A stretch of 14,230 bases of DNA from an uncultured archaeon (GCA_964510585.1 CAZECW010000037.1:1-14230); one strand, 5' to 3'. Positions 1 through 14,230 are shown, counted from the first letter of the stretch. Notes: generated from the sequence alone by a model not told the origin. Program-made: numbers and translations.

Positions 1-206
1 GGTATATAAATAGTTGTTGGTAGCTGAAGGGTTTGGCTTGGGCTTTAAGGGGCTAAACAAGACGCAGCCCCCATGAGGGTGCCAACATAGACGCCGTTCC
101 CATGAGGGAAGGGCGTGCTAACTGGGTGATGGCACACCCATTGCTTCGAAGGCTCCCAATGAGCCAGAAGCAAGAATCTCCCGACTTTAGTCGCGGAGAG
201 TGTCAA
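1..206 (+). mobile_element. Non-autonomous IS200/IS605-family mini element, copy 1 (left end outside window)
   Basis: Aligns to 11243-11448 with 8 differences over 206 nt (counted by eye). Right end: GAAT (174-177), bulged hairpin CTCC-CGACT-TT-AGTCG-C-GGAG, then AGTGTCAA ending at 206, resembling the IS608 right end. Confidence 0.88.
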
Positions 207-226
207 ATGTAGAAAATTACAAACCA
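13..226 (+). ncRNA. Candidate omegaRNA from copy 1 (putative guide ATGTAGAAAATTACAAACCA)
   Basis: Same stems as copy 2; the differences fall in loops, linkers or the 5' arm of the right-end hairpin. Confidence 0.5.
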
Positions 227-288
227 ATTTTGGTTACCGCTAATTAAAATAAATGGAGGTAAAAATTGCGGTTCTCTCGGGAAATTTT

Positions 289-882
289 TTAGGTCTGCTT
301 GGGTTTGAAGTGCTTTTTGAAAACTTCATATATGTCTTCAGGTTTTTCCAGTATATGTACGTCGTCCATTTTTGATAGTTTTTTTACGTGTTCCACGTCT
401 TCTGGTCTTATTCTTAATCGTAAGTCTCTTCCGTCAGGGAGCTTTGTAGTTACGGTTCCCACCTCGTAGTCGGAGGGCATTATGTAGAGTGGAACATAGG
501 CCTTCAAGCCCATGATGGCAGCGTTGGAAAGTAGGCTGTCAGCCAAACCCATGGCGATCTTAGCTACAGTGTTCGATGTTGCGGGAGCGATTAGTAAGAA
601 TTCAAATTTTCCCATTTGTAGTTGACCTGCAAGAAAGGGTGCATTGGCGTTAATTTCAACCCAAACCTTGTCGAAAACCTCAAGTATATCGTGGCTCAAC
701 TTATAATACTTTAAAACTTGGTCGCCTGCCTTGGAAACGTAAACCCGAATATCCACTAAGTCCTCAAATTCTTCGTTTATTCTTCTCATGACTTCGAATG
801 TTTCCCTTAGTCGGTCTCCGCTACCCGTAATTCCCCAAGCCACCTTTTTCAGCTTCTTTTTCTCCTCCTTTTTCTCAACCAT
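289..882 (-). CDS. afpA: Archaeal flavoprotein (AfpA-like, HFCD/Flavoprotein family, FMN-binding)
   Basis: N-terminal VAWGITGSG and APATSNTVAKIAMGLADSLLSNA motifs; no Fe-S cysteines; GGAGGAGTGA RBS before the ATG; directly downstream of an Isf-like gene, a pairing known from Archaeoglobus. Confidence 0.8.
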   Translation of the reverse strand: MVEKKEEKKKLKKVAWGITGSGDRLRETFEVMRRINEEFEDLVDIRVYVSKAGDQVLKYYKLSHDILEVFDKVWVEINANAPFLAGQLQMGKFEFLLIAPATSNTVAKIAMGLADSLLSNAAIMGLKAYVPLYIMPSDYEVGTVTTKLPDGRDLRLRIRPEDVEHVKKLSKMDDVHILEKPEDIYEVFKKHFKPKQT

Positions 883-904
883 TATTCACTCCTCCAAAAT
901 CTAT

Positions 905-1504
905 CTATACCTTTTTTTCTTTTGTCTCGATTTTTTCTAATAACTTGACAAATTTTTTAACGGTCTTTTCCAGGCTTCTGAATCCTTCTTCGTCTTCTTT
1001 TACCCCTTCCAGAGTGTCCTTAGACCAAAATGTGGCTCCCAGATTTGCTCCGAAGGAGCCGCCGCTAACTGGTATAATTCCATTCAGTACATAGAAAGTT
1101 ATGATTTGTTGTATCGCCAGCTCCTGTCCCCCCATCCGGTCACCGCCCACTGCGATTGCCATACCCACCTTGTACTGCAGAGCGTTGCGGTCTTCCGCAA
1201 GGAGAGCTCTACACCGGTCCATTACTACTTTAATCTGGGCGCTGAGTGCACCATTGTAGACTGGGGTGGCCATTATTAATCCCTTAGCATTTTTGATGAG
1301 GGGGTAGAGTTCAAACATGTCGTCTTTAATTCTACACTCCTTATTTTTCAGGCAGTAGTCGCAGTGTTGACATGGCGCAATGTTTTTGCCCCTCACACCA
1401 AAAAACTCTGTTTCGAATCCCTTTTCTTCAAGCATCCTCAAAGCTTCTCTCAAAACATACTCCGTTGCCATTTTCCTTGGGCTTCCACAAATGCCAAGTA
1501 TCAT
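905..1504 (-). CDS. isf: Iron-sulfur flavoprotein (Isf)-like, flavodoxin/NADPH-dependent FMN reductase fold
   Basis: Begins MILGICGSPRK; compact CX2CX2CX5C motif (CQHCDYCLKNKEC); ATPVYNG and AVGGDRMGGQE flavin-binding segments. Start moved from the ORF-track 1585 to the ATG at 1504 because the family homology begins there. Confidence 0.82.
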   Translation of the reverse strand: MILGICGSPRKMATEYVLREALRMLEEKGFETEFFGVRGKNIAPCQHCDYCLKNKECRIKDDMFELYPLIKNAKGLIMATPVYNGALSAQIKVVMDRCRALLAEDRNALQYKVGMAIAVGGDRMGGQELAIQQIITFYVLNGIIPVSGGSFGANLGATFWSKDTLEGVKEDEEGFRSLEKTVKKFVKLLEKIETKEKKV

Positions 1505-1589
1505 TTCCACTTCCCAAAATCCTATAATTTCCCAAGACTTATTAACATTCTCACAAAAATGCCTGCAGAAACTTTCCAAATTCATCTCA

Positions 1590-1616
1590 AAAAGGAGTAT
1601 TTATATGGCTCCTTTT
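1590..1616 (-). promoter_or_regulatory. Putative TATA box of isf-afpA enclosed by an 8-bp inverted repeat
   Basis: AAAAGGAG (1590-1597), 11-nt spacer, CTCCTTTT (1609-1616); the spacer reads TATAAATA on the minus strand, about 95 nt upstream of the isf ATG. Confidence 0.45.
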
Positions 1617-1851
1617 CCAATTTAGAGCCCAAAAAAGGGAAAACGGAATAACCACATCACTAGAGTGTTAGCCGCTTAAAAAATTTGAATGGGTAAATCC
1701 TCAAACTGTCAAATTAATAATTTGCCGATGGTAGAGAAGAAAGCAGTCCAAGAAAATATTTTAGATTCGCGGTATCCTACATGTAACTCTAAGGGTTCTA
1801 AAGGGGGAATCTTTTTAGCCCAAAAATCTTGGATGTGGAACTAAACGAATT

Positions 1852-2763
1852 CTAGGTGTCAGGGAGATCTGAGCTCTGTGTTTGCTCCCTTGTTTGTTGT
1901 ACCAATATTTCAGTTATTATGGATCCTGTGCGTATGGTTCGCACTTTATAAAGTATGATTCCTTTAAAGAATCCTATTGTGTGTGCTACTGCTTCAAAAA
2001 ACTTTATGGTAAATAGGCCCAGTGTGTAGGCCAGGTTTCTCATCAGTTCCCTCCTTTTTTGAGCCAGAACTTTCCAGTAAACCATTGCTTGTTGTTTCAC
2101 CAGTTGGGGATGCTTGCTGACATAGTGGTAGAAGCTCCTAGCATATTGGTATTCTCTCCTAATTGTTTTGAGGATGTTAAAGTTTTTTTCCACGTGCTTC
2201 AAGTGGGAGTCTACTCTTTTGATGGTGACGCCCTGTTCTCTGGCTCTCTGGGCTATGTCCCAGTCTTCTCCAGCCTCCAGCTGAGGGTCAAAGCCTCCAA
2301 GTTTCCAGTAAACACTTCTCCTAAAGAATCTGGGAACCTCCACCAGCTTCTCTCCTACGAAGAGGTTTCTCTCAAAACATTTACACTTGGCCCAGAATCC
2401 CTGTCCATCTGCAACTTCGGGAATAATTACAGCCTCGGCGCCCCTCAAAGCTTCACTCACACATTTTTCTATAGCATCGAAGCTAAGCTGCATATCTGCA
2501 TCTATTGAGAGAATAAACTCACCACGCGAATTTTTAGCTCCAATATTTCTAGCCTCAGACCTTCCAGCTCGCACCCTAATTACCCTGGCTCCAAACTCTC
2601 TCGCTATGTCCACTGTTCTGTCCCTAGAATAGTCATCAACGACAATAACCTCTATGTAGGGGTAAGTTTGGTTCCTTATTGACTCAAGACATAAAGCAAT
2701 ATATTTTTCTGCATTCCTTGTGGGAATAGTTACCGAAACAAGTCCTCCCAAACCCAACACCAA
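1852..2763 (-). CDS. Glycosyltransferase family 2
   Basis: VSVTIPTRN...LESIRNQTY...VIVVDDYSRDRT, SIDAD (DxD) and GEDWD motifs; exact start codon uncertain (TTG/GTG cluster). Confidence 0.9.
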   Translation of the reverse strand: MVLGLGGLVSVTIPTRNAEKYIALCLESIRNQTYPYIEVIVVDDYSRDRTVDIAREFGARVIRVRAGRSEARNIGAKNSRGEFILSIDADMQLSFDAIEKCVSEALRGAEAVIIPEVADGQGFWAKCKCFERNLFVGEKLVEVPRFFRRSVYWKLGGFDPQLEAGEDWDIAQRAREQGVTIKRVDSHLKHVEKNFNILKTIRREYQYARSFYHYVSKHPQLVKQQAMVYWKVLAQKRRELMRNLAYTLGLFTIKFFEAVAHTIGFFKGIILYKVRTIRTGSIITEILVQQTREQTQSSDLPDT

Positions 2764-3071
2764 TCCCTACCCTAACCGAAAATGCTCCTTCCTTAAAGGT
2801 GTTGGAAAGCTTAAAGCACCAATTGAAATTTAGATCCCCAAAAAAATATTTTTTTCGGTAATAACCTGCCAGAATTTTTCATACAAGGAGGATTGGAGGA
2901 AAAAGATAGGAGCATAGATTGAGCAAGGTCCACTTAATAATAACTCGCTTTAATCGTAAGTTATCCCTTTTTCTTGAGGCTTCTGAAAAGGTTAGGTGTC
3001 TGAGCCTTCCTTTTTTAATCTCACGCTTTTTAATATTTATGTTAAAAATTTACTATCCATTCTAAGATATG

Positions 3072-3105
3072 TTTATTAAAGGTTTAATCAATAAAAATTG
3101 ATTAA
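3072..3105 (+). promoter_or_regulatory. TATA box plus perfect palindromic operator candidate upstream of the lipoate ligase gene
   Basis: TTTATTAA at 3072-3079, followed by TTAATCAAT-AAAA-ATTGATTAA (3084-3105), which covers the expected transcription start. Confidence 0.55.
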
Positions 3106-3110
3106 CATTT

Positions 3111-4307
3111 TTGGAGGTGCATTGTCTGTCCGAAACCTTTTGGAAGAGAGAGGATGGTAAAACAAAGTGGGAGGAGGATGAGGCTGCCTACATTGTGAGG
3201 CATACAACTTGGGCTGAATTTGTTGTGATTGCAGGTTCTTCTTCGATGGTTCCCAAGGGGGTTCTTCCCCCCGCCTTTATGATGTGGCTGACTTGGAAGA
3301 AGAATAACATAATTTTCCCCTACTTCGCTTCTCCCGACTACGATGTAAACCTGAAATATTGTATGGAACACGACATTGCAGTTGAGATTAGATGTCCGTA
3401 TGGAGGAGGCGTATCGTGGGTAGATGTAGGGGCACCCGCAAGTACCATGGCCTTTAATCGGGAACATCCCAAGTGTCCACCAACCCTTGAGGAATTCTAC
3501 AGGAAGATTTTCTCAGGCGCAGCCAAAGAAATAGGGGAAGTATACGGTCTTAAAACCAGGTACAAACCCCTCAATGATGTGGAGGTCATGTGTGACGACG
3601 GGAAATGGAGGAAAATTAGCATTGCCAGCGGGATAAGTAGTCAGAGTTTCATGGGATGCGGCTACGTCATCCAATTAACCCCTGTTCCATGGGACATAGT
3701 AGACCAAATCATTACGCCTCCCCCCGAAAAGTTTGCGGATAAGGAGACAAAAACGCTTCGAGACAGATCCATAAATCTGAATGAACTGGTGGGGAGAGAA
3801 ATCACTTTAAAGGAGTTCCAAGGGGTGATGAGGGACGCATTGTCCAAAGCTTTCGGAGTTACACCAGTCCCTACGGTTGTGGAGTGGGAGAAGATTCCCG
3901 CATATAACATGGCTAAAGGCTTGCTCTCCTCTGAAAACTTCTTCTACAACAGGGCTGAGAGGGTAAAGTTTGCCGACACCCCCATAACAAAAGGAGTGGG
4001 TAAAGGAGAGGCTAGAATAAAAATTCCCCAAGGGCCATTCGTAAGGGTCGTAGTGCTTGTAAAAGAAAATAAACTGTATAACATTCTGGTAACGGGCACC
4101 CTCCACGCGGCTCCCATGATACCCTTCTCCCCCATAGATGTAATGGAAAAAGAGCTCAAAGACACACCCATAGACAAAAAAATAATTCTAGAAAAGGTAA
4201 AGAAGATATACGCCACCCCGGGATATGAAGTTCCAAACATCACACCGGAACAATTCACAGACCTAATAATGAGAGCAGTAGAAATAGCAAAAGAGTCCAC
4301 CCAATAG
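3111..4307 (+). CDS. Divergent lipoate-protein ligase family protein (catalytic domain fused to C-terminal accessory domain)
   Basis: DVNLKYCMEHDIAVEIRCPYGGG resembles the RRxxGGG motif; KPLNDVEV...GKWRKIS carries the conserved Lys; the C-terminal KIPQGPFVRVVVLV...ILVTG resembles the LplB-type domain. Start uncertain: GGAGGTG at 3113-3119 suggests a start slightly downstream. Confidence 0.8.
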   Translation: MEVHCLSETFWKREDGKTKWEEDEAAYIVRHTTWAEFVVIAGSSSMVPKGVLPPAFMMWLTWKKNNIIFPYFASPDYDVNLKYCMEHDIAVEIRCPYGGGVSWVDVGAPASTMAFNREHPKCPPTLEEFYRKIFSGAAKEIGEVYGLKTRYKPLNDVEVMCDDGKWRKISIASGISSQSFMGCGYVIQLTPVPWDIVDQIITPPPEKFADKETKTLRDRSINLNELVGREITLKEFQGVMRDALSKAFGVTPVPTVVEWEKIPAYNMAKGLLSSENFFYNRAERVKFADTPITKGVGKGEARIKIPQGPFVRVVVLVKENKLYNILVTGTLHAAPMIPFSPIDVMEKELKDTPIDKKIILEKVKKIYATPGYEVPNITPEQFTDLIMRAVEIAKESTQ

Positions 4308-4315
4308 ATCACCCC

Positions 4316-4328
4316 TCCCACTTTTTTA
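4316..4328 (+). terminator. Possible oligo(T) archaeal terminator after the ligase gene
   Basis: Pyrimidine-rich tract ending in T6 (4322-4327) just after the stop codon. Confidence 0.3.
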
Positions 4329-4542
4329 TATAAATAAGAGTGCCAAAAAGGCGGCCTAGTAATGGGATTAAACAATTAAAGGCACAAGTATAGCACACTG
4401 GTTTAGCACGCTATTTCCCTTTTTGAGCATGCCCTACCCTTTTTTTTCCTCCTTAGAGAGGAGCCTCTCTTAAAATCTTCTTCGGGGAGCCCTAGAAACT
4501 GATTCGGTTTATGCTCGCTTGGCGGAGGCACAAAAGTTTTTA

Positions 4543-4594
4543 CGCTCAAACACAATTTAAATATTATCCGTTTGTTATAGAAGCGTTTTGAGCG
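4543..4594 (+). promoter_or_regulatory. Putative promoter of the FAD/Fe-S cluster, TATA flanked by an 8-bp inverted repeat
   Basis: CGCTCAAA (4543-4550) and TTTGAGCG (4587-4594) bracket TTTAAATA (4556-4563). Confidence 0.4.
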
Positions 4595-4628
4595 GAGCTT
4601 AATGCGCCAATTATCTTTTTAGAAATTT

Positions 4629-6080
4629 TTGGCGGAGGAAAATGTTTTGTCCCAAAAAAAGCTTAGGAACCCTAACTATTCCAGTATCCGTAAATCTCTG
4701 GAGAGCATTGTTGGGAAAAATTTTGTTTCCGACCGTTCGGAGGAACGCTACTACTATTCCAGCGATCCCAGTGCTGAGGAGCCCTGCACTCCGGATTTTG
4801 TGGTAATGCCGGGCTCTGTTGAGGAGATTCAGGAAATAGTGAGGCTCGCCAATCGGGAAAAGATTCCTCTGACTCCCCGTGTAGGCGGTATGACTCTGTC
4901 CGGCCTAGCCATACCTTATGGCGGTGGTATACTGCTGGATTTGAAGAGGATGGATAGAATAATTGAAGTGAACGAGGACTCCATGTATGCGGTGGTGGAG
5001 TGTGGCGTGACAACGGGGCAACTCAAAACCTATCTGGAGGAGAACCATCCCCATCTCTGGTTCTGTCAGCCTCACGCTCCACAATCTGTTGGGGTAATAT
5101 CTAATGCGATCATATACGGTGCTGGACAGGTATCTCTAGGCTATGGTGTCAGCTCAGATATGATTAATGGTTTGGAGGTTGTTCTGCCCACAGGAGAAAT
5201 TCTAAGAACCGGCTCCTGTGCGTTGGGTAAGTCCTGGCTCACCAAGTACTGCCTCCCCGATTTTACGGGACTGTTTCTGGGCTGGTTCGGCGCCACAGGC
5301 ATAATTACCAAGGCTTCCGTGCAGCTCTGGCCAAAACCCAGCATTCGCGACACTATGTTTTATAAGGTGGATACTGTGGAGGACACTGTGGATATACTTT
5401 TGAAGCTGACTAAGAGTGAGGTTTGTGATGATATTTACATTAACAGTTGGACTGGAACCAGCACTAAAAGGTTCTACATGTCCCAGAAACCTGAAGGCAC
5501 CCCAGAGATTACTATGGACATCATTCTTAGCGGAAAGAACCAAGAACAAGTCGACTTAAAGAAGAGGATGATTGGAGAAATTATGGAGGAAGCCATGAGG
5601 AAGGGAGTTAAAGTTGAGGAGTTTGAACCTCCCTTAATGCTAAAAATCGCCATGTTGATGGTTCCCCAGCCCTTGCCTTTTATGGATTTGATGCTCGGTG
5701 GCGGCGCCGAATACTTGGGATGCTACATTCCCACGGAAGCCATGGGTGAAGCCTACAAGAGGGGAATAGAAATAGCGAAAAAGTATGGTTTCCAATACCT
5801 ACACGTGGTTAGGCCCTTCAGGACTGGACACTGCACCGGGATAATGTACGCCTTCCCCTTCGATAAAAGGAATCCCGAAGTGGTCGAAAAACTGCTAAAG
5901 GTTCTGGTGGAAATATGCGATATGGCCATAAATCTGGGGGGCGTTCCTTGGAAGCCCTCACCCACAGTTCAGAAAATCGTTTTAAAACACGCAGATTCCC
6001 AGTACGTGCAACTCATGAAAAAAATCAAAACCATGCTTGACCCGAACGGTATAATGGCTCCCGGACAATGGGCTCTTTAG
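4629..6080 (+). CDS. FAD-binding oxidoreductase (FAD_binding_4/VAO-PCMH fold, GlcD-like), paralog 1
   Basis: PDFVVMPGSVEEIQEIVRLAN...PRVGGMTLSG...GGILLDLKRM, GLEVVLPTGEILRTG, GATGIITKA and LDPNGIMAPG motifs; the TTG start is supported by N-terminal alignment to paralog 2. Confidence 0.9.
   Translation: MAEENVLSQKKLRNPNYSSIRKSLESIVGKNFVSDRSEERYYYSSDPSAEEPCTPDFVVMPGSVEEIQEIVRLANREKIPLTPRVGGMTLSGLAIPYGGGILLDLKRMDRIIEVNEDSMYAVVECGVTTGQLKTYLEENHPHLWFCQPHAPQSVGVISNAIIYGAGQVSLGYGVSSDMINGLEVVLPTGEILRTGSCALGKSWLTKYCLPDFTGLFLGWFGATGIITKASVQLWPKPSIRDTMFYKVDTVEDTVDILLKLTKSEVCDDIYINSWTGTSTKRFYMSQKPEGTPEITMDIILSGKNQEQVDLKKRMIGEIMEEAMRKGVKVEEFEPPLMLKIAMLMVPQPLPFMDLMLGGGAEYLGCYIPTEAMGEAYKRGIEIAKKYGFQYLHVVRPFRTGHCTGIMYAFPFDKRNPEVVEKLLKVLVEICDMAINLGGVPWKPSPTVQKIVLKHADSQYVQLMKKIKTMLDPNGIMAPGQWAL
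4692..4759 (+). repeat. Second near-identical tract shared by the FAD oxidoreductase genes (partner 7445-7512)
   Basis: 67/68 nt identical, including a 53-nt perfect run (4707-4759 = 7460-7512). Confidence 0.9.
5166..5339 (+). repeat. Near-identical tract shared by the two FAD oxidoreductase genes (partner 7919-8092)
   Basis: 165/174 nt identical; all 9 differences are synonymous. Confidence 0.9.
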
Positions 6081-6083
6081 GAG

Positions 6084-7277
6084 TTGATGGATATGGTTTT
6101 AGAAAAATATAAAGATATACTTCACCGCTGCTACAAGTGCCAGTACTGCAGAACCACAGGCCCTAACCTTTTCTACAACGGGTGTCCCTCCTACACCAAA
6201 TTTCGGTTTGAAACCTTCACGGGCGGCGGAAGGATGTGGACTGCCAGAGGCGTTTACGAGGAGGAGTTTGGCTTTGACGACGATATTGTAGATATACTTT
6301 TTGCCTGCCAAACCTGTGGAAACTGCTCCACCCAATGTATATATCCCATAAAGGACAGCATTTTGAGAATAATTGAAGCCACCAGAGCCGAAGCAGTAAA
6401 AGCGGGAATAAAACTTCCCGGCCGCCAGAAAGACTTCGGAGTACATATGGGAAAGGAACACAATCCTTACCTTGAACCCCACAGCAAAAGATTGGACTGG
6501 CTACCAAAAGGCATAATTCTACCCGAAAAATCAGAAATGGTTTACTTTGTAGGCTGCACTTCTGCTTATCGGCAGAAGGTTCTGGCACAGGACACCGTTG
6601 CTGTCTTTGATAGTTTAGGCTTGGACTTCACCATAATGAGAGATGAGTGGTGTTGCACCTCACCCCTGCTAAGAACTGGACAGTGGGAAACAGACTATGT
6701 CTCGGCTTCAAAGATTGCTCAACACAATATTGAAGAAGCCAAAAAAGTGGGCGCCTGTAAAATTGTTACCACCTGTTCCGGATGTTTCAGAACTTGGAAA
6801 AAGGACTACCTAGAGGAATACGACTGGCTTCTTAATTCCAAACACGACTTTGAAGTATTACACACTACCCAGCTGCTGGAGAACATGATAAAAAACGGCG
6901 AAATAGAGTTAAAAAACGAGGTGAAAATGAAGGTCACCTACCATGACCCCTGCCATCTGGGAAGACACATGTGGGTATACGACTCCCCACGCAACATACT
7001 TAAAGCAATACCTGGCATAGAACTGGTGGAAATGCCCCGCACTAGGGAAAATGCTTGGTGCTGCGGTTCCGGAGGAGGAGTCAAATCCGGCTACGGTGAA
7101 TGGTCAGTTGAAACCGCCTATGAACGAGTGAAGGAAGCAGAAAAACTTGGTGTTGAAGCCATCGTATCCGCTTGTCCCTTCTGCTGGCGTAATCTAGACG
7201 ACGCAATAAAACAGCACAACTCAAAACTCCAAATGTACGACGTGATACAGCTAGTCAGAAAATCAATGGGCATATAA
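6084..7277 (+). CDS. (Fe-S)-binding protein, GlcF/HdrD-like (two [4Fe-4S] motifs plus two CCG domains)
   Basis: CYKCQYC...CP and CQTCGNCSTQC; YFVGC, WCCTSP, TTCSGC; YHDPCHLGR, WCCGSGGG, SACPFC. Starts 3 nt after the upstream stop with an AGGAG RBS, consistent with an operon. Confidence 0.9.
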   Translation: MMDMVLEKYKDILHRCYKCQYCRTTGPNLFYNGCPSYTKFRFETFTGGGRMWTARGVYEEEFGFDDDIVDILFACQTCGNCSTQCIYPIKDSILRIIEATRAEAVKAGIKLPGRQKDFGVHMGKEHNPYLEPHSKRLDWLPKGIILPEKSEMVYFVGCTSAYRQKVLAQDTVAVFDSLGLDFTIMRDEWCCTSPLLRTGQWETDYVSASKIAQHNIEEAKKVGACKIVTTCSGCFRTWKKDYLEEYDWLLNSKHDFEVLHTTQLLENMIKNGEIELKNEVKMKVTYHDPCHLGRHMWVYDSPRNILKAIPGIELVEMPRTRENAWCCGSGGGVKSGYGEWSVETAYERVKEAEKLGVEAIVSACPFCWRNLDDAIKQHNSKLQMYDVIQLVRKSMGI

Positions 7278-7378
7278 AAACCAAAAATTTCAATCTCTCC
7301 TCCCCCTTTTTTGAATGGCACTCTTAAAAATTGAGTCTTTCTTAGTGTCATTTTTGGTTTGGGTTTTTGGCGTGAAAA

Positions 7379-8839
7379 ATGTATGTGGAGAAGCCTAATT
7401 TGCCTAAAAAAACGCTAACAAGGCAGAATCATAAGGGCATTTTGAAATCTCTGGAGAGGATTGTTGGGAAAAATTTTGTTTCCGACCGTTCGGAGGAACG
7501 CTACTACTATTCAGGTGACCCCAGTACTGAGGAATCACGCAGTCCAGGATTTGTGGTGTTGCCTGGAAATGTGGAGGAGATTCGGGAAATACTGTTGTTG
7601 GCCAATAGGGAGGGAGTTCCCATAACTCCTCGGGTTGGCGGTATGACTCTGTCTGGACTGGCGATACCGTGTGAGGGGGGCATAGTGCTGGACTTAAAAA
7701 GAATGGATAAAATTGTGGAATTAAATAAAAGTTCCATGTACGTGGTGGTGGAGTGTGGAGTAACAGTGGGCCAGCTTAAGACCTATCTTGAGGAGAACTG
7801 CTCCAATCTCTGGTTTAGTATGCCCCACGCTCCTCCCTCCGTGGGCGTTATTCCCAACGCGTTAATACACGGTTTGGGCCAATTGTCGCTTAGTTATGGT
7901 GCAAACTCAGACTTTGTTAATGGTTTGGAGGTGGTTCTTCCCACAGGAGAAATTCTAAGAACCGGCTCCTGCGCGTTGGGTAAGTCCTGGCTCACCAAAT
8001 ACTGCCTCCCCGATTTTACGGGACTCTTTCTGGGCTGGTTCGGCGCCACAGGCATAATCACCAAGGCTTCTGTGCAGCTCTGGCCGAAGCCCAATTTTAG
8101 GGACGCTCTGTTCTACAAAATCTATAATGTAAATGACATTCCTGAAATCTTCTTGAAGATGACTAGGAGTGAAGTGTGTGAAGACATTTGTATGTTTAGT
8201 TGGACAGGAACCAGCGGCAGAGAAAGGTTCCCCCTGCCCGAAAAACCCTCGGATGTTTCAGAAATCACCATGGACATTGTTTTAAACGGCAAATCCCTAG
8301 AAGAAATAGAATATAAGAAGCGGACTGTGAAAAGCATCGCAGAGAACCTGTTAAACAACGGTATCCAGATTGAGGAATACGCCCGCTCCCCACAGGCAAA
8401 AAAGGAGGTTTTAATGGTTCCACGAACCTTCCCCTTTATGGACTTATTGCAGGGTGGAGGAGCCGAGTACCTAGGATGCTACATACCTTCACCCTTGATT
8501 GACACTGCCTATAAGAGGGGGGTTGAAATAGCTAAAAGACACGGATTTCAATATTTGCACTTTCTGAGGCCTATGCGCTCAGGACACGCTATTTGCATTT
8601 TGTTCATATTTCCCTTTGACAAAAGAGACCCCAATCAAGTCAAAAAACTAGTAAACGTCTTGAAGGAACTCTCTCAGGACTGTATTAATCTTGGGGGTGT
8701 GCTTTGGAAGCCTTCCCCTACACTTCAAAATATTGTTCTGAAAAATGCTGATTCAGAATACCTCAAACTTATGAAAAAAATAAAAAAATTATTGGATCCC
8801 CGAGGGATAATGGCTCCCGGGCAATGGATGCTCTATTAG
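7379..8839 (+). CDS. FAD-binding oxidoreductase (FAD_binding_4/VAO-PCMH fold), paralog 2
   Basis: Collinear with 4629-6080 over its full length, including a 58-aa identical block. Confidence 0.9.
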   Translation: MYVEKPNLPKKTLTRQNHKGILKSLERIVGKNFVSDRSEERYYYSGDPSTEESRSPGFVVLPGNVEEIREILLLANREGVPITPRVGGMTLSGLAIPCEGGIVLDLKRMDKIVELNKSSMYVVVECGVTVGQLKTYLEENCSNLWFSMPHAPPSVGVIPNALIHGLGQLSLSYGANSDFVNGLEVVLPTGEILRTGSCALGKSWLTKYCLPDFTGLFLGWFGATGIITKASVQLWPKPNFRDALFYKIYNVNDIPEIFLKMTRSEVCEDICMFSWTGTSGRERFPLPEKPSDVSEITMDIVLNGKSLEEIEYKKRTVKSIAENLLNNGIQIEEYARSPQAKKEVLMVPRTFPFMDLLQGGGAEYLGCYIPSPLIDTAYKRGVEIAKRHGFQYLHFLRPMRSGHAICILFIFPFDKRDPNQVKKLVNVLKELSQDCINLGGVLWKPSPTLQNIVLKNADSEYLKLMKKIKKLLDPRGIMAPGQWMLY

Positions 8840-8867
8840 GGGTGAACTCACACTCTAAGACTCACTA

Positions 8868-8907
8868 CTCCCTTTTTGGCATTTACATAAAAGAAGGGGG
8901 AATTTTT
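8868..8907. terminator. Probable bidirectional terminator region between convergent genes
   Basis: CCCTTTTT on the plus strand and AAAAGAAGGGGG (pyrimidine/T-rich on the minus strand) within a 68-bp convergent gap. Confidence 0.3.
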
Positions 8908-9951
8908 TTATTCGAAAACTTTGCCTGCTCCCCCAACGGTGAGCTTCTCACCCAAGCTTAGACGTACCAAGTTGCTTAGTATGTAGGGTTCCAAGTTCTG
9001 TGCTTTGGCTCTGCTTCTGAGACCGAGAACACACATAGGGCAGAGAAAAACCATTGCTTCAGCTCCATGCTCCTTGGCGTCCATCAGGTTCTTGTTCCGC
9101 CACTCTTCCAATTCCTCTTTGGACACCGTGGACATTGCTCCCTGCGCCCCACCGCAGCACAAGGCATACATCCTGTCATATTTCCTATTCACCCTTTCAA
9201 CTCCTATGAGTTTAAAGAGTTCGTCAAGCATTTTGTCTTTGGCAAAGGTGTATCTTGAGGCGCAAGGCTGCTGGTACGCTATTTTCATGTTAAGCTTTTT
9301 TACTTCGTTCTTGTGAGCTTTGACGTAGTCCCTCAGATACTCTATTATGTGTATTGGTTTGAATGGTAGTTTTATTCCAAATTCGTGAACCTTGTTGCCT
9401 AAGAGGGCGTAGCAGTCGTCGTGGTAGCATATGACCTCTTTGGCTCCCACCTCCTTCACTACCTTGGACAAGTTGTCGACAAACTTTTGGGCGTTTTGTT
9501 TAACCATGCTGGGCTTACCGACGTGAATCCAGCCGATGTAGCAGAAGTAGTCTCCACCCTTAGTAATGGTTAACCCATCGAAAAGCCGGCCTTCAATAAC
9601 TCCTGGGAGAAGGTCTACCGTACAGAGGTTCAAAACTGGTTTACCCTTTTCACCCTTCTTAACTTCGGAGGGCAGTTGGGAGGCCATACTCATCATACTC
9701 ACTGCTCTCTCTGTTGCTGGAAAAGTCCCAGTTTCTTCCTGCCTTTGATTAATTAAGTCGAAGGGATTGGCTCCCTCAGGACAGTACATGTTGCAGGCAC
9801 AGCAGGTTATGCACTCCGAGGTTACTGGTGTGGGTTCTCCCTTAATTAACTTTTTAAATTCCTCCTTAGCTTTTTCCTCGGGGTAGGCTAAATAGGCGCA
9901 CTTCATGAGGCACTCTCCACAGAGGGTGCACTTTTCTTCATAAAACATCAT
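8908..9951 (-). CDS. (Fe-S)-binding protein with CCG domains (first CCG domain degenerate)
   Basis: CTLCGECLMKC and CITCCACNMYCP ferredoxin motifs; C-terminal YQQPCASR, LCCGG, FLCPMC. Start moved to the ATG at 9951 (or 9948) because GGAGG lies at 9960-9956. Confidence 0.85.
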   Translation of the reverse strand: MMFYEEKCTLCGECLMKCAYLAYPEEKAKEEFKKLIKGEPTPVTSECITCCACNMYCPEGANPFDLINQRQEETGTFPATERAVSMMSMASQLPSEVKKGEKGKPVLNLCTVDLLPGVIEGRLFDGLTITKGGDYFCYIGWIHVGKPSMVKQNAQKFVDNLSKVVKEVGAKEVICYHDDCYALLGNKVHEFGIKLPFKPIHIIEYLRDYVKAHKNEVKKLNMKIAYQQPCASRYTFAKDKMLDELFKLIGVERVNRKYDRMYALCCGGAQGAMSTVSKEELEEWRNKNLMDAKEHGAEAMVFLCPMCVLGLRSRAKAQNLEPYILSNLVRLSLGEKLTVGGAGKVFE

Positions 9952-10092
9952 ATTTCCTCCAATTAATTCTGCTAAATATCCTCTTCTAATCATATATTTT
10001 TTACTGCTCCACTAAAGTTTTGTAGTGGCGGAGTTGGAAAACAAAAATGATAAAAACTAACAGTGAGACTGGTATTTTTATAGGTATAAGGC

Positions 10093-10974
10093 TTATTCTG
10101 AATCGTATTTTAGGGCTGACTTCAGCGTTTCTATGTAGTTTATTCTTCTAATAGCGTCCTTTAGTGGGCCGTCAAAAAACTTTCGGGCTTCATCGAGACC
10201 TTTTCCGCCAAACCAAGTTTTGGACTTAATATTGGGGTCTAGTTTAGCTATTAGAATGTGCTCTCTTTCCAGGGGGGCTTCACCTATTTTTTCTCCAAAG
10301 GGTGAGAAAACGGCGCTTCGTCCGGGTAGTCTTCCAACCTTGGGGTGATAAGCAATTGGGTTAATCTGAACAATGAAGTAGCAGTTTTCTATGGCTCTCA
10401 CCCATGCAAACTCGTGAAACAACTGGAGTGAGAGTTCGTTGGCCAGGGTTGGGTGGAAAACGATTTCCGCACCCTTAAACTTTAGTGTTCTGGGGATTTC
10501 GCTCAGTAAAATGTCTCCACAAATTATGGCTCCTATCCTTCCAAATTCACTCTCTACGACGGGATATTTTCCTTCCAATTCATAGTATCCAGGGTAATAC
10601 CAAGCTCTACTAAAATCCACAACTTCACCCCGAGGAGAAACAATTATCCCCGCATTGTAAATTTTATCACCTTTTCGGGCCGGAATAGTGCCGCCCACCA
10701 GCCATACTCTCAACTCTCTCGCTTTCTCCCTAATTTTCTGGTATGTAGGGCCATCCAAGGACTCAACAACTTCCACCGGCCTTTTGTTCTCAAGCCAAGA
10801 ACCCACATTGAAAAACTCGGGAAGAGCAACAATCTCCGCTCCCCTACTCACCGCCCTCTCCACCATATCTAAAGCGTGGGAAACATTCTCATCTACATCA
10901 CACTTAGTAAAGGCGTCATTCAACCTCATCTGAATAGCAGCAACAGTAACTTCATTCACAGAAATCAACCCCAT
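10093..10974 (-). CDS. Carbon-nitrogen hydrolase (nitrilase superfamily) with atypical catalytic Lys site
   Basis: VAAIQM, ALPEFF (Glu), IYNAGII, GRIGAIICGD (Cys), GAEIVFHP, RAIEN and GRSAVFSPFG motifs. Confidence 0.87.
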   Translation of the reverse strand: MGLISVNEVTVAAIQMRLNDAFTKCDVDENVSHALDMVERAVSRGAEIVALPEFFNVGSWLENKRPVEVVESLDGPTYQKIREKARELRVWLVGGTIPARKGDKIYNAGIIVSPRGEVVDFSRAWYYPGYYELEGKYPVVESEFGRIGAIICGDILLSEIPRTLKFKGAEIVFHPTLANELSLQLFHEFAWVRAIENCYFIVQINPIAYHPKVGRLPGRSAVFSPFGEKIGEAPLEREHILIAKLDPNIKSKTWFGGKGLDEARKFFDGPLKDAIRRINYIETLKSALKYDSE

Positions 10975-11172
10975 AAGCGTAATACCAACTTCAACACTAG
11001 ATATAAATTTTTACAAAAAATGCTCCGTCAAACAATCTTCACTTTTGGAAAATATAAGTTGAATTCTGAAAATTTTTCAAATTAACTTTGTAAAGTTGCA
11101 AAAAATTAACCAAAACCCATAAAAAACTACACCCGCTTACGCGTTTTAGACAAGATATGAAAGAAGTTTTAC

Positions 11173-11448
11173 AAAACCTTGGTGAGAAAGCCCCCGACTT
11201 TAGTCGTGGGGATGAATCGCCAGAAAGTTTATTTGAAAGTAGGGTATGTAAATAGTTGTTGGTAGCTGAAGGGTTTGGCTTGGGCTTAAGAGGCTAAACA
11301 AGACGCAGCCCCCATGAGGGTGCCAACATAGACGCCGTTCCCTTGAGGGAAGGGCGTGTTAACTGGGTGATGGCACACCCATTGCTTCGAAGGCTCCCGA
11401 TGAGCCAGAAGCAAGAATCCCCGCGACTTTAGTCGCGGAGAGTGTCAA
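11173..11448 (+). mobile_element. Complete 276-bp non-autonomous IS200/IS605-family (IS608-like) mini element, copy 2
   Basis: TTAC at 11169-11172 immediately 5'; AAAG (11187-11190) at the foot of hairpin CCCC-CGACT-TT-AGTCG-T-GGGG (11191-11211); GAAT (11415-11418), hairpin CCGCGACT-TT-AGTCGCGG (11421-11438), terminal TCAA (11445-11448); no target duplication and no transposase ORF. Confidence 0.9.
11221..11235 (+). promoter_or_regulatory. Element-internal BRE/TATA-like promoter candidate
   Basis: CAGAAAG followed by TTTATTT (11228-11234), about 27 nt upstream of the start of the first predicted RNA stem (11255-11257). An alternative TATA is TATGTAAA (11245-11252), which reads TATATAAA in copy 1. 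Confidence 0.45.
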
Positions 11449-11468
11449 CATTCATAATGGCAGTTTAA
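11255..11468 (+). ncRNA. Candidate TnpB-type omegaRNA (scaffold ~11255-11448 plus ~20-nt flank-derived guide)
   Basis: Contiguous stems read by eye: 11257-64/11321-28, 11265-68/11306-09, 11273-79/11293-99, 11332-42/11347-57, 11364-69/11376-81, 11382-88/11408-14 enclosing 11392-96/11402-06, then the right-end hairpin. Ends at the IS right end, as TnpB omegaRNAs do. Confidence 0.6.
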
Positions 11469-11589
11469 AATTAAAAATTTGACGTAAATGGCAACACTTG
11501 AAAAACTTATTTCCCCAGCCTTCAATCGCCGGAAAATTATGAGGCATCCCACCGCGAATTTTTCGATTTTTGAACAATTATTTTGTTAG

Positions 11590-12339
11590 TTAAATTATAT
11601 TTATTATCCAGTCTACTACGGCGTCCATGGCCTTTTTGTTGTTCCTGATTTGGTGATTTACATTTTTGCAGATTAACAGTTTTTTGGGCTCCTTAGCATG
11701 CTGATATAGCTCGTAGGCGTTTTGAACTGGAATTATTTCGTCTTGGTCTCCGTGAACTATGAGAACCGGCCTGGGTGAAATACTTCCAGCCCAATTAAGA
11801 GGTTTCAAATTTTTTAGATCCACAAGTAATTCTTTTACTGTTTTCTCGACATTAGTTATCCTCAACATGCCGAATTCTTTTGCATATTTTATTCCTTCCA
11901 CTATTAGGGGAATTTTTTCAAGGTCTGAGGGACTAGAACAACTAGCGAAGGCTCTAACTCTGGGATCATTGGCTACAACAGACCAAGAAACGAATGCTCC
12001 AGCGCTGAAACTCACGAGCCCCAATCTTTTCGGGTCTATTCTTGGCAGAGAGGCAAGATAGGATATGGCGTCGTAAACATTGCGTGACCAGCCGGAAAAA
12101 CTGAATTCGCCTTCGCTGCCACTGGTGCCCTGAAAGTTGAAAATTAGTGCAGCGCATCCCCTTCCACAAAACTCCTTGGCTAATGAGGGGTACCCCTTCT
12201 CCTCAACTGGTTTATTCTCTCGGGGTAATCCGTGGCAGATGCATACTGCAGGCACCGGTTTGGCATCTTCGGGAAAAAAGATTGTTCCTCCCAGGCACAC
12301 CCCATTGCTGAGAATAGCAACCTTTCTACTCTCAATCAT
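11590..12339 (-). CDS. Alpha/beta hydrolase (serine, Ser-Asp-His triad)
   Basis: ICHG oxyanion segment, nucleophile elbow VSFSAG, IVHGDQDEII (Asp) and NVNHQI (His). Start moved to the ATG at 12339, which is preceded by a GGTG RBS-like sequence. Confidence 0.88.
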   Translation of the reverse strand: MIESRKVAILSNGVCLGGTIFFPEDAKPVPAVCICHGLPRENKPVEEKGYPSLAKEFCGRGCAALIFNFQGTSGSEGEFSFSGWSRNVYDAISYLASLPRIDPKRLGLVSFSAGAFVSWSVVANDPRVRAFASCSSPSDLEKIPLIVEGIKYAKEFGMLRITNVEKTVKELLVDLKNLKPLNWAGSISPRPVLIVHGDQDEIIPVQNAYELYQHAKEPKKLLICKNVNHQIRNNKKAMDAVVDWIINII

Positions 12340-12466
12340 ATTAACACCAAGCTTCGAACATTTGATGATAGAATAATTTATAATTTTCCAATTCATAAAC
12401 TATACATAGTATTATAATTAGGGAGTATAAAGTCTTATTCGATAGGAGAGGGTAAAAATTACAACC

Positions 12467-12991
12467 TTGCATGTGGAGGAAGCCCCCTTCGCAAGAGTTT
12501 TCGCATATAGGGTGATTTTCATCTTTTTCCTCAGTTTTATAGTGTTCGGAATTCTCGCATATGGACTGGGCCAGTTCTCAATTCAGCAATTATTCAGCAC
12601 ATCGATGAGCGCTGTCCAATTATTAGCCCTAGCATATCTGGGAGTAGCGTCTTTCCTAATCTATTTGGGAATTGTTTACTACAAGTTTAGATATGTGGTT
12701 AGGAGAGACAGATTACAGATTAAATTCTTCCCCTTCACAATTTCTATCCGCTACGACACAGTGTACGAAATTGATTTAGTCCCACATGAAAACTTGGAGC
12801 ATTCTCCCAAGTTTGGACTTATGATTCTGGGAAATTCCCTTATTGCCGTTGCAGGCAAAAAACCCGTTCTGTACATAAAAAGAATGGAGGGCATAATCAC
12901 AGACTTTTATATTTCCTCAGAATACCCGGAACAGTTGATTTCCAGAATTAAATTCAACATGAAGAAGTACTTCGCCCCCAGAAAAACTTGA
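12467..12991 (+). CDS. Hypothetical membrane protein (two N-terminal hydrophobic helices plus a soluble, possibly PH-like, C-terminal domain)
   Basis: Hydrophobic stretches VIFIFFLSFIVFGILAYGL and LLALAYLGVASFLIYLGIVY followed by a beta-rich region; divergent from the hydrolase. Confidence 0.65.
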   Translation: MHVEEAPFARVFAYRVIFIFFLSFIVFGILAYGLGQFSIQQLFSTSMSAVQLLALAYLGVASFLIYLGIVYYKFRYVVRRDRLQIKFFPFTISIRYDTVYEIDLVPHENLEHSPKFGLMILGNSLIAVAGKKPVLYIKRMEGIITDFYISSEYPEQLISRIKFNMKKYFAPRKT

Positions 12992-13027
12992 ACAGACACC
13001 CCAAAAATTTTCCAGCCCTTTTACGAT

Positions 13028-13909
13028 TCAGGGTTTTGCGAAGCCTCTTTTGAGCTCCAATCTTTGTAGAATGTTTTTCGCCGTTTCTTTTACGTCCTCG
13101 TCGGGATCCTCAGTGAAACCAGATAATTTCTGAATCAGATAATTTGTTTTTACTCCCCGATGGGCATAGGCTCCAAGTGCGAAAACAGCGTTGGCGCGCA
13201 CATGAGGATCAGGGTCATTTAGTAAGTTGAGTAGCGGCTTTAAGATTCTCTCGTCAACCTGTTTTTCTTCGGCGTTTTCCCCAATTACGAATGCAATTCC
13301 TTCACGAATTTGGGGATCCTTGTGACTTAAAAGTTCAATGAATCTTTCCAAGACTTGTTCCTTCATCTGCGCCCCGTCCCAGATGTTTTCCGCCAAGGCA
13401 ATAGAGAGTCCGACCTTAACATTGGAGTCCCGCGTTTCCAATATTTTTTCCATAAGTTCTGAATCGTTTTTTTCCAAAATTTCTTTTACAGCATAGATTC
13501 CAAGGGTCCAGCCCGCGTTGGCTCGGAGTTCCTTATCATCATCGGTGAGAAATCTGAGAAGCGTTTTTATGATTCCCCTACTATAAAAACCCAGCTTAGC
13601 ATACTCACCCAGAGCAGTGGTGGCGCGACAGCGCACCTTACTACTCCAATCCCTTAATAGTTTTATTAGTGGTTTCAGAGCAGACTCATCAAAAATTCCG
13701 CGAGAGGCATACTCCCCCACAGCAAAAGCCGAGTTCATCCGAACCTCCCTATCCTCATCCTGCAACATGGGTATAAGTAACTTTAAAGCCCTTCTATCAA
13801 GTTGACCTTGCAACGCGTATCTCCCAATGTTAAAAGCCGCACGGCTCCGCAACAATCTGTCCGAATCTGCCAATAGCCGAATCTGCTTTTCCAAGTCTTG
13901 CCCCTTCAA
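13028..13909 (-). CDS. HEAT-repeat (alpha-solenoid) protein
   Basis: About 7 repeats of the form L..LL.D.D..VR..AA.ALG.(Y)A; TTG start with GAGGGT 8 nt upstream. Confidence 0.9.
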   Translation of the reverse strand: MKGQDLEKQIRLLADSDRLLRSRAAFNIGRYALQGQLDRRALKLLIPMLQDEDREVRMNSAFAVGEYASRGIFDESALKPLIKLLRDWSSKVRCRATTALGEYAKLGFYSRGIIKTLLRFLTDDDKELRANAGWTLGIYAVKEILEKNDSELMEKILETRDSNVKVGLSIALAENIWDGAQMKEQVLERFIELLSHKDPQIREGIAFVIGENAEEKQVDERILKPLLNLLNDPDPHVRANAVFALGAYAHRGVKTNYLIQKLSGFTEDPDEDVKETAKNILQRLELKRGFAKP

Positions 13910-13936
13910 TTTGCAGTACCCTCATTTTGTTGCTTA

Positions 13937-14092
13937 CTATTTTTTACGTGTATCCTGCTGACTAACTTTAACCCCTATAAATATTACTGCAATTCCAGTT
14001 ATTTCTGTAGCAGCCGGAATTAAACGTACCAATAGTGGCGGCAAAAAAAAGTTCTTCACAAAATCCAAAGGAATTGGGATGGGATAGATAAG
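13937..14092 (-). pseudogene. Probable 3' remnant of a small membrane-protein gene interrupted by element copy 3
   Basis: 51 open codons beginning exactly at the element junction (LIYPIPIP...LLVRLIPAATEITGIAVIFIGVKVSQQDTRKK*) with a hydrophobic helix and a basic tail; stops 27 nt before the co-oriented HEAT gene. Confidence 0.45.
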
Positions 14093-14230
14093 TTGACACT
14101 CTCCGCGACTAAAGTCGGGAGATTCTTGCTTCTGGCTCATCGGGAGCCTTCGAAGCAATGGGTGTGCCATCACCCAGTTAACACGCCCTTCCCTCAAAGG
14201 GAACGGCGTCTATGTTGGCACCCTCATGGG
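14073..14230 (-). ncRNA. Candidate omegaRNA from copy 3, 5' part outside window (putative guide CTTATCTATCCCATCCCAAT)
   Basis: Reverse-complement match to the 3' ~138 nt of copies 1 and 2 with stems preserved. Confidence 0.5.
14093..14230 (-). mobile_element. Non-autonomous IS200/IS605-family mini element, copy 3 (inverted; left part outside window)
   Basis: The reverse complement ends GAATCTCCCGACTTTAGTCGCGGAGAGTGTCAA at 14093, identical to the copy 1 right end. Confidence 0.88.

Follow-up and report, generated by a model that had tools for sequence, protein, structure and literature searches.

Gene-less IS200/IS605 derivatives with a predicted TnpB guide-RNA scaffold, dispersed in the genome of a hot-spring Jordarchaeia archaeon

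The window and its repeats

The stretch of DNA analyzed here, referred to below as the window (14,230 bp; CAZECW010000037.1:1-14230 of GCA_964510585.1), is the whole of contig C37 in a metagenome-assembled genome (MAG) of 3.78 Mb, comprising 217 contigs, with 96% completeness and 41.7% G+C. Proteins at least 90% identical to the products of its housekeeping genes carry the labels Candidatus Jordarchaeaceae, Jordarchaeia or Freyarchaeota, which belong to the Asgard archaea, and DNA of the window was recovered from hot-spring metagenomes. Three copies of one repeat are found in it, separated by genes of ordinary metabolism, namely those for flavoproteins, a glycosyltransferase, a nitrilase-family hydrolase, a peptidase and two GlcD-like FAD oxidases with CCG-domain partners. 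The analysis presented below identifies the repeat as a 276-nt element devoid of a protein gene, and specifically as a derivative of the IS200/IS605 transposons of the kind termed palindrome-associated transposable elements (PATEs) or miniature inverted-repeat transposable elements (MITEs), with the end code of IS608. Its right two-thirds are predicted to constitute the scaffold of a TnpB omegaRNA (obligate mobile element-guided activity RNA), for which the chromosomal DNA flanking each insertion would furnish the guide.

The three repeats, at 1-206 (plus strand), 11173-11448 (plus) and 14093-14230 (minus), are 92-98% alike and all close with ...CGCGGAGAGTGTCAA, with divergence setting in from the very next base and the next 20 bases differing among all three. 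These positions, the divergence past TGTCAA and the three flanking strings had already been given in a preliminary description made from the sequence of the window, and they stand as quoted there. Copy 1 (1-206, plus) is the right-hand 206 nt of the element, clipped by the contig end and 96% identical to element positions 71-276; within it lie the stems of the scaffold as well as the right-end hairpin, and its terminal TCAA is at 203-206. Copy 3 (14093-14230, minus) is the right-hand 138 nt, likewise clipped by the contig end, and is complete in an independent contig from the Joint Genome Institute (JGI), L107, where sequence of contig C30 adjoins it on the TTAC side. The possibility that the terminal copies are assembly artefacts was thereby ruled out: both are genuine insertions that were truncated where the contig ends. 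The central copy (11173-11448, plus) is a complete element as assembled, with left end, promoter-like A/T stretch, omegaRNA scaffold and right end, although its two halves probably come from different insertions, as discussed below.

Census of the element in the genome

A blastn search with the element against the 3.78-Mb assembly returned 140 matches, 29-30 of which are complete and internal. Counting junctions instead yields 68 right ends of the element type and 81 left ends, with identities of 91-98%, which disposes of the objection, raised in the preliminary description against itself, that only a few copies might exist. TTAC stands directly 5' of 92 of the 93 readable left junctions, and the right-end flanks are distinct in all 74 cases, in keeping with the earlier proposal of one constant scaffold joined to a copy-specific flank; conservation of the fold, described below, bears out the other half of that proposal. 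Overall, the genome contains about 70-80 elements, or about one per 50 kb. About 100 contig ends of the assembly stop approximately 140 nt into the element; thus, the three copies per 14 kb seen in the window reflect ascertainment rather than genomic density, and the window itself begins and finishes in a copy because the repeat fragments the assembly. The suggestion, extrapolated from local density, that there could be very many guides is accordingly not borne out by the census. Contig depth summed over the element is 100-300 times that of its flanks, although this sum runs over all organisms and therefore gives no copy number.

The central copy probably joins two insertions

Along the 41.8-kb contig L107, C30 is followed by an element, by window positions 14092 to 11449 in descending order, by a second element and by the end of C99. 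The counterpart of the central copy in L107 differs from that of the window at several positions in the left half, while the right half and the adjoining flank are 99.7% identical. Taken together with two empty sites in related genomes, termed X and Y and described below, this order suggests that the real neighbourhoods would be C99-element-C37:11449 onward, on the one hand, and C37 up to 11172-element-C142, on the other. Hence, C37 is most likely a mis-join, or else a true recombinant, of two unrelated neighbourhoods inside the central element; under either alternative, assembler error or recombination, the central copy stands for two insertions. Contigs of four DNA sequencing runs covering 8900-13950 contain no joint that skips 11173-11448. 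From the left flank, four short contigs of other assemblies reach into the element, and none of them crosses it. For two runs of a related strain, the alignment of long contigs begins only at 11449, with about 10 kb of unaligned sequence upstream; an empty or differently occupied site would look like this, although these contigs are not counted as evidence. As the repeat fragments and probably mis-joins the assembly, readings of this genome that are based on synteny are affected more generally.

Anatomy and origin of the element

The IS200/IS605 prototype, IS608 of Helicobacter pylori, inserts at TTAC, is cleaved at TCAA and carries the guide tetranucleotides AAAG and GAAT 5' of its two subterminal hairpins. 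The same code can be read in the element. No open reading frame of 80 or more codons is present within 11173-11448, and the two ends are unlike each other, each having a subterminal imperfect hairpin that follows a guide tetranucleotide, with the right end closing in the cleavage tetranucleotide. Insertion occurs 3' of TTAC without duplication of the target, given that empty orthologous sites read TTAC followed by the flank in a sister species (genome G004) and CTAC followed by the flank in contigs of a related strain. In the window, the target of the insertion at site Y, to which the left half of the central copy belongs, is the TTAC at 11169-11172 (plus), which would double as the transposon-adjacent motif (TAM) of TnpB and is found uninterrupted, as CTAC, in the related strain. 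The left-end module predicted to be recognized by TnpA (11187-11211, plus) consists of AAAG at 11187-11190 and an imperfect hairpin at 11191-11211, and is the same in the left ends of autonomous elements on contigs C169, C7 and C162; the first ~65 nt of the element as a whole are approximately 90% identical to those left ends. The right-end module (11415-11448, plus) comprises GAAT at 11415-11418, hairpin S4 at 11421-11438, the terminal GAGTGTCAA and the cleavage site TCAA at 11445-11448. Most copies agree in all of the last 25 nt, a stretch that is also present in MAGs of Methanomethylicaceae and Bathyarchaeota.

A related unit was observed in an Elusimicrobiota MAG (JBDRIG010000050.1, our L105), on the minus strand and ending at 7150 of the reverse complement. 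It is a mini-unit of ~47 nt with a single hairpin, in which TTAC is followed by AAAG, the same hairpin and GAGTGTCAA. That contig is labelled bacterial, and the unit may be either a minimal derivative with fused ends or part of a mis-binned archaeal contig.

Between its ends, the element combines sequences from two regions of an autonomous parent. An A/T-rich stretch with TATA-like boxes (11227-11256, plus) aligns to the left end of the C169 element, and this alignment stops a few bases short of the tnpA start codon. Element positions ~120-276, in turn, align to the last tnpB codons and the right end of the elements on C8, C81, G004:C141 and G004:C193. The element therefore arose through a deletion that removed tnpA and most of tnpB and brought the left end next to the final ~185 nt of its parent. 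The right side thus contributes about 185 nt and the left about 90 nt. Since the left end is retained almost to the tnpA start codon, whichever promoter had served tnpA would now be fused to the scaffold, and 11227-11256 is a candidate promoter of the scaffold RNA, taken over from the region upstream of tnpA. Transposition has been recent, as insertions are polymorphic between strains in both directions.

A predicted omegaRNA scaffold with a conserved fold

The RNA corresponding to 11262-11468 folds at -86 kcal/mol, versus -65 for shuffled sequences (z = -4.75), into five hairpins, S0 to S4, the last of which is the right-end hairpin described above. The 5' hairpin S0 (11273-11299, plus) is part of the minimum-free-energy fold and recurs in a locus of a Bathyarchaeota MAG (L104). 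We compared the fold over 23 homologues, drawn from six genomes of the genus and including both gene-less and tnpB-linked versions. When folded singly, approximately 19-20 of the 23 (counted by eye from dot-bracket strings) display the order S1-S2-S3-S4, with stem sequences that are unlike one another. Thus, at S1 (11332-11357, plus) the relatives use other stems, such as ACGCC/GGCGT, GTGCC/GGCAC and GGCTT/AAGCC, among others. Likewise, S3 (11382-11414, plus) is built of UUGCUUC/GAAGCAA here, of UUGGAGG/CUUCCAA in the C8-type element and of CACUUCU/AGAAGUG in another, with further versions in the genomes G002, G003 and G005.

Covariation in the alignment supports S2 (11364-11381, plus), together with a pseudoknot in which its loop UGGCA (11371-11375) pairs with UGUCA (11443-11447) at the very end of the element. 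In S2, both sides have changed in four of the six pairs and 91% of the cells are paired; the pseudoknot is paired in 98% of its cells, its middle pair being G-U in 17 sequences, A-U in 4 and G-C in 2. Jointly, 94.5% of the cells of these two helices are paired, versus 28-49% when the partners are slid against each other, and their covariation score was reached by none of 500 shuffles. In the structures of the ISDra2 system, the TnpB omegaRNA is laid out such that its pseudoknot ends directly before the guide. As the four-stem fold and the pseudoknot are kept with compensatory changes, the right two-thirds of the element can be assigned with some assurance to a predicted TnpB omegaRNA scaffold. 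A search of Rfam found no family at its gathering score for the element RNA. The HgcC family (RF00062) produced a sub-threshold match at 11349-11461 with 17.7 bits (E = 0.07), far under its gathering score of 50, and membership in it was rejected.

The sister species represented by G004 possesses a gene-less family of its own, of ~215 nt, whose parent is the C8-type element and whose deletion breakpoints lie elsewhere. Here, the left end reaches as far as the point at which tnpA would start, and an ATAG marks its junction with the base of S1; the retained right side consists of S1-S4 plus the terminal motif and nothing more.

Flanks, empty sites and potential targets

The predicted guide of each copy is its own right-hand flank, namely the 20 nt past TCAA. 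In the window, the guide-equivalent flanks are ATGTAGAAAATTACAAACCA for copy 1 (207-226, plus), CATTCATAATGGCAGTTTAA for the insertion at site X, to which the right half of the central copy belongs (11449-11468, plus), and CTTATCTATCCCATCCCAAT for copy 3 (14073-14092, in minus-strand reading). If a guide is determined by the place of insertion, it should equal the sequence that followed TTAC before the element arrived, and for both halves of the central copy the related genomes indicate that it does. At site X, the orthologues of C99:34729-36105 and C37:11449-13804 are contiguous in G004, with C99-type sequence directly upstream of TTAC and a junction that reads TTAC|CATTCACAATGGCAGTTTAA, in which 19 of the 20 guide bases agree with those in the window. 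At site Y, contigs L115 and L116 of a 96%-identical strain show the left flank of the window running into C142:139 onward, with the junction ...CTAC|ATAGTAAATTGACAATGTTA matching, at 18 of 20 bases, the flank that follows the right end of the element at the start of C142. The prediction of the preliminary description that each guide matches its own pre-insertion allele was thereby vindicated at two sites. L115 (JGI 3300043569) also illustrates the polymorphism of insertions noted above: it lacks a copy at the TTAC of window 11169-11172 and contains, at 3915-4202 of its reverse complement, an inverted mini-element at the equivalent of C142:467/474, where the present genome has none. For copies 1 and 3, the orthologous stretches of the sister species are uninterrupted and too diverged to have kept TTAC and the guide.

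We further searched the genome for TTAC followed by the first 16 nt of each of the 74 guides, allowing up to three mismatches. A TTAC-flanked match elsewhere at zero or one mismatch was found for just one of the 74; seventeen guides have matches only at two or three mismatches, which is consistent with chance for A/T-rich 16-mers, and the guide of copy 1 has no TTAC-preceded match within three mismatches. The single close match is that of the guide of C12:8955, for which a perfect TTAC plus 20-nt match occurs at C154:2120; the 198 bp downstream are 98% identical to C12, and the upstream sequences are unrelated. This site could be a paralogue open to cutting or homing by an active system, or could stem from a second strain binned into the MAG. 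On the whole, nothing in the sequences searched suggests targets of the putative guides beyond their own empty sites.

Another junction of note is C62:12659-12707, the first 49 nt after an element, which recurs exactly at C75:18685-18733, where it is preceded by TTACAA and the upstream sequences differ.

Transposase and TnpB partners

The autonomous elements on C169, C7 and C162 encode a full Y1 transposase domain (Y1_Tnp, full-length match with 119.8 bits), followed by the N-terminus of tnpB. The TNB domain of TnpB is matched at five places in the genome. The tnpB gene on C81 is an intact frame of 426 aa with OrfB_IS605 and TNB domains; the C8 gene is represented by its C-terminal 107 aa at the start of the contig, with C-terminal pieces of the same type on C54, C152 and C45; the C204 gene belongs to another family with a canonical DED triad; and those on C13 and C124 are decayed copies. 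The C81 locus, a full-length element (L062 1393-3105, minus strand), shows two further peculiarities, in that a decayed tnpA, reading PGYIQLF where the HUH motif is expected, is fused in frame to the apparently intact tnpB, and in that the latter has lost its stop codon, so that the frame continues across scaffold and right end and closes only at a TGA within the flank.

Relatives of the C81 TnpB number 687 at E ≤ 1e-10, many of them 70-84% identical, and come from MAGs of Jordarchaeaceae, Bathyarchaeota, Methanomethylicaceae and Nitrososphaerota. In an alignment of 24 rows (the C81 protein, 21 database relatives, the homologue on G004:C141 and the C-terminal fragment from C8), D183, the aspartate of RuvC-I, shows conservation of at least 90%, and no variation is seen at D356, the aspartate of RuvC-III, or at the four cysteines of the zinc finger. 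The position of the canonical RuvC-II glutamate, as located by alignment to that of the solved TnpB 9nzp, is occupied by a glycine (G275, at least 90% conserved), and the G004 homologue reads IVVGNL there, whereas a glutamate in the next strand (E322, within SEY) is invariant. Altae-Tran et al. 2023 (PMC10691335) described large clades of TnpB, with several archaeal branches among them, that combine a glycine at RuvC-II with a compensating alternative glutamate, and modelled this site as rearranged rather than inactivated. By its sequence, the partner TnpB family thus belongs to the RuvC-II-rearranged class (RIIr); it is not evidently dead and may be predicted to be active.

Proposed mechanism and alternative explanations

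These observations can be combined in the following scheme. Y1 TnpA from the autonomous copies elsewhere in the genome is available to move the mini-element. Each copy would be transcribed from the A/T-rich left-end region through TCAA into ~16-20 nt of the flank, and the resulting RNA of scaffold and flank would be loaded in trans by TnpB from the few full-length elements. The TnpB complex would then cut TTAC followed by the flank, a site that exists only after excision of the copy in question, and repair from a sister chromosome would restore the copy, amounting to homing or retention as in the model of Meers et al. 2023 (PMC10055086). Taken as a whole, i.e. an omegaRNA-bearing PATE with guides from the flanks and trans-acting TnpB, we regard this scheme as the best explanation of the data and as moderately probable. 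Under it, the ~70-80 guides are a passive by-product of ~70-80 insertion sites and not an acquired or curated set.

Several points weigh against this scheme. The start of the RNA, its read-through past TCAA and its processing are all inferred, and the TATA-like stretch at 11227-11256 is the part of the element that varies most among copies. The canonical RuvC-II glutamate is missing from the partner family, and the activity of its class rests on structure predictions from the literature. The interior of the closest autonomous tnpB (C8/C169 type) is absent from the assembly, the C7 copy looks frameshifted and the G004 homologue has lesions; thus, an intact cognate TnpB can be pointed to for the C81 type only, and the scaffold of that type departs from that of the mini-element at S1 and has an S3 loop of another size. 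Furthermore, an active system might cut the perfect match at C154:2120, unless C12 and C154 come from different strains.

The alternative that fares best would regard the repeats as purely parasitic mini-transposons, in which the scaffold is either a relic of the right end of the parent or a single-stranded DNA structure for TnpA, with neither a functional RNA nor a role for TnpB. TnpA alone suffices for IS200/IS605 transposition (PMC10055086), and the variability of the promoter-like stretch is readily accommodated by such a view. Sequence conservation among the copies bears on it in both senses. On counting departures from the consensus among the genomic copies, which are not independent of each other, we found them in 89 of 8,503 stem cells (1.05%) versus 107 of 5,506 unpaired cells (1.94%; odds ratio 0.53), i.e. 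stems change about half as often as loops, a point against this alternative. However, the copies are young (95-98% alike), such that little can be concluded about function from their conservation in one genome, and of the 88 stem changes in individual copies about half (47) break a pair and 41 keep it, so that the constraint per copy is modest to weak. The comparison between genomes also speaks against pure parasitism: the stems covary across diverged relatives, including gene-less ones that are free of coding constraint, and the independently formed family of G004, with its other breakpoints, has kept S1-S4 together with the pseudoknot partner. Moreover, TnpA needs only the subterminal hairpins and the tetranucleotides flanking them, and yet the right side retained exceeds the left about twofold. 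Both this excess and the second family of G004 hint at a reason for the retention of the guide RNA, and on balance we consider the purely parasitic alternative to be unlikely.

A second alternative, also raised in the preliminary description, is that the RNAs constitute a domesticated set of guides, with which a nuclease-dead TnpB binds and regulates host genes. TldR proteins are reportedly such nuclease-dead regulators derived from TnpB, which have lost catalytic residues, reside in fixed host contexts and use guides that match TAM-flanked host promoters. The glycine at the RuvC-II glutamate of the partner family and the great excess of guide-only loci over tnpB genes (five TNB matches, only some of them intact or cognate) might be taken in its favour. 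However, neither of the RuvC aspartates nor the zinc finger has been lost, E322 is invariant, and the glutamate-to-glycine class has been described as rearranged and probably active, so that the suggested co-option by a dead nuclease finds no support in the sequence. The tnpB genes lie inside mobile elements with recognizable ends rather than in fixed host contexts, the insertion sites are polymorphic between strains, and the lone TTAC-flanked match among the 74 guides lies in a 98%-identical duplicated stretch; domestication thus appears very improbable.

Finally, a CRISPR-like (clustered regularly interspaced short palindromic repeats) defence repertoire against viruses or plasmids has nothing in its favour but a likeness of form, with a variable 3' segment coming after a constant scaffold. 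It can be dismissed almost entirely, as the variable segments are chromosomal DNA beside the insertions, contiguous with host genes, the copies lie scattered on more than 100 contigs with one scaffold per locus and no array, and neither the three window guides (as TTAC plus 16 nt) nor the 25-nt right end has an exact match in IMG/VR.

Returning to homing by trans-acting TnpB, a stronger version of it may be entertained. With guide-only elements exceeding nuclease genes by more than ten to one, the genome could harbour a self-homing network in which a few rearranged TnpB proteins are shared by about 75 guides, each guarding its own insertion; the gene-less family of G004 would then reflect selection for the guide RNA. 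We put this forward tentatively, as a possibility somewhat short of an even chance.

In either version, the element exemplifies an idea that is already known, namely that no nuclease gene is needed for transposon ends and a guide RNA to spread. The ~75 natural units of scaffold and guide, with matching empty sites in sister strains, offer a resource for the study of TnpB homing in trans, and the hot-spring TnpB family with its 687 relatives, a widespread one of the glycine-for-glutamate type, is a candidate nuclease resource.

Other features of the window

The two GlcD-like FAD-linked oxidase genes, at 4629-6080 and 7379-8839, are paralogous and 73-77% identical over several blocks, and a CCG-domain iron-sulfur protein adjoins, or is encoded near, each of them. 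The pair looks like a local duplication of a module of the lactate/glycolate-oxidase type.

Two short dispersed repeats precede the central element. The first (11063-11126) has a core of ~45-65 nt with ~40 matches in the genome and many more in the sister genomes G001, G003 and G004. The second (11134-11170) is 37 nt long and has ~10 matches at 89% identity. These repeats possibly represent another mini-element or a shared intergenic signal.

Comparison with known systems

The element shares with IS608 (described in PMC10055086) the TTAC target, TCAA, the tetranucleotides AAAG and GAAT and the lack of target duplication. IS608 is, however, a 1.8-kb autonomous bacterial element with tnpA and tnpB, whereas the present one measures 276 nt, has no genes and derives from an archaeal relative. 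Comparable with it by description are the PATEs or MITEs of Haloquadratum walsbyi (Dyall-Smith et al. 2011, PMC3119063), which are likewise archaeal, multi-copy, gene-less derivatives of the IS200/IS605 type, and which were described before guide RNAs were known.

In Halobacterium, a PATE-derived non-coding RNA, VNG_R0052, is transcribed (Gomes-Filho et al. 2015, PMC4615843), and the same study linked the HgcC family both to the 3' ends of IS1341-type tnpB genes (the sense overlapping transcripts, sotRNAs) and to transcribed PATE-derived RNA. These archaeal RNAs, like the one predicted here, come from the tnpB 3' end or from fused ends and include the right-end hairpin. The Halobacterium RNAs have been shown to be transcribed, whereas the window element is known from sequence and its HgcC match falls far below threshold.

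The likeness to CRISPR arrays lies in a constant structured RNA joined to a variable targeting part of ~20 nt, to be read by a RuvC-type nuclease related to Cas12. Arrays and acquisition machinery are absent here; instead, there is one guide per locus, fixed by the landing site and aimed at its own empty site. The CRISPR-like logic perceived in the preliminary description is therefore apt as an analogy, but not as a system, in that the supposed spacers are chromosomal flanks set by insertion and not acquired.

The nearest counterparts are the omegaRNA-bearing PATEs of Geobacillus stearothermophilus. Meers et al. 2023 (PMC10055086) stated that PATEs "often encode omegaRNAs", on which TnpB from other IS elements must act in trans. 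As here, the Geobacillus elements are protein-free, have ends in common with TnpA/TnpB elements of the same genome and have kept the omegaRNA, with trans-acting TnpB proposed for them; again as here, the guide is the flank past the right end and the TAM is the target of TnpA. They differ in number, with "several" among 47 elements as against ~70-80 copies, and in that the present host is an Asgard archaeon (Jordarchaeia) with a RuvC-II-rearranged TnpB, known so far from its sequence. As PATEs with an omegaRNA that requires TnpB in trans were thus known already, the element described here is a large and clean archaeal example rather than a new class of system. To this picture our analysis adds two empty sites, a chimeric contig, a gene-less family that arose independently in a sister species and, for the partner TnpB family, a rearranged RuvC-II.

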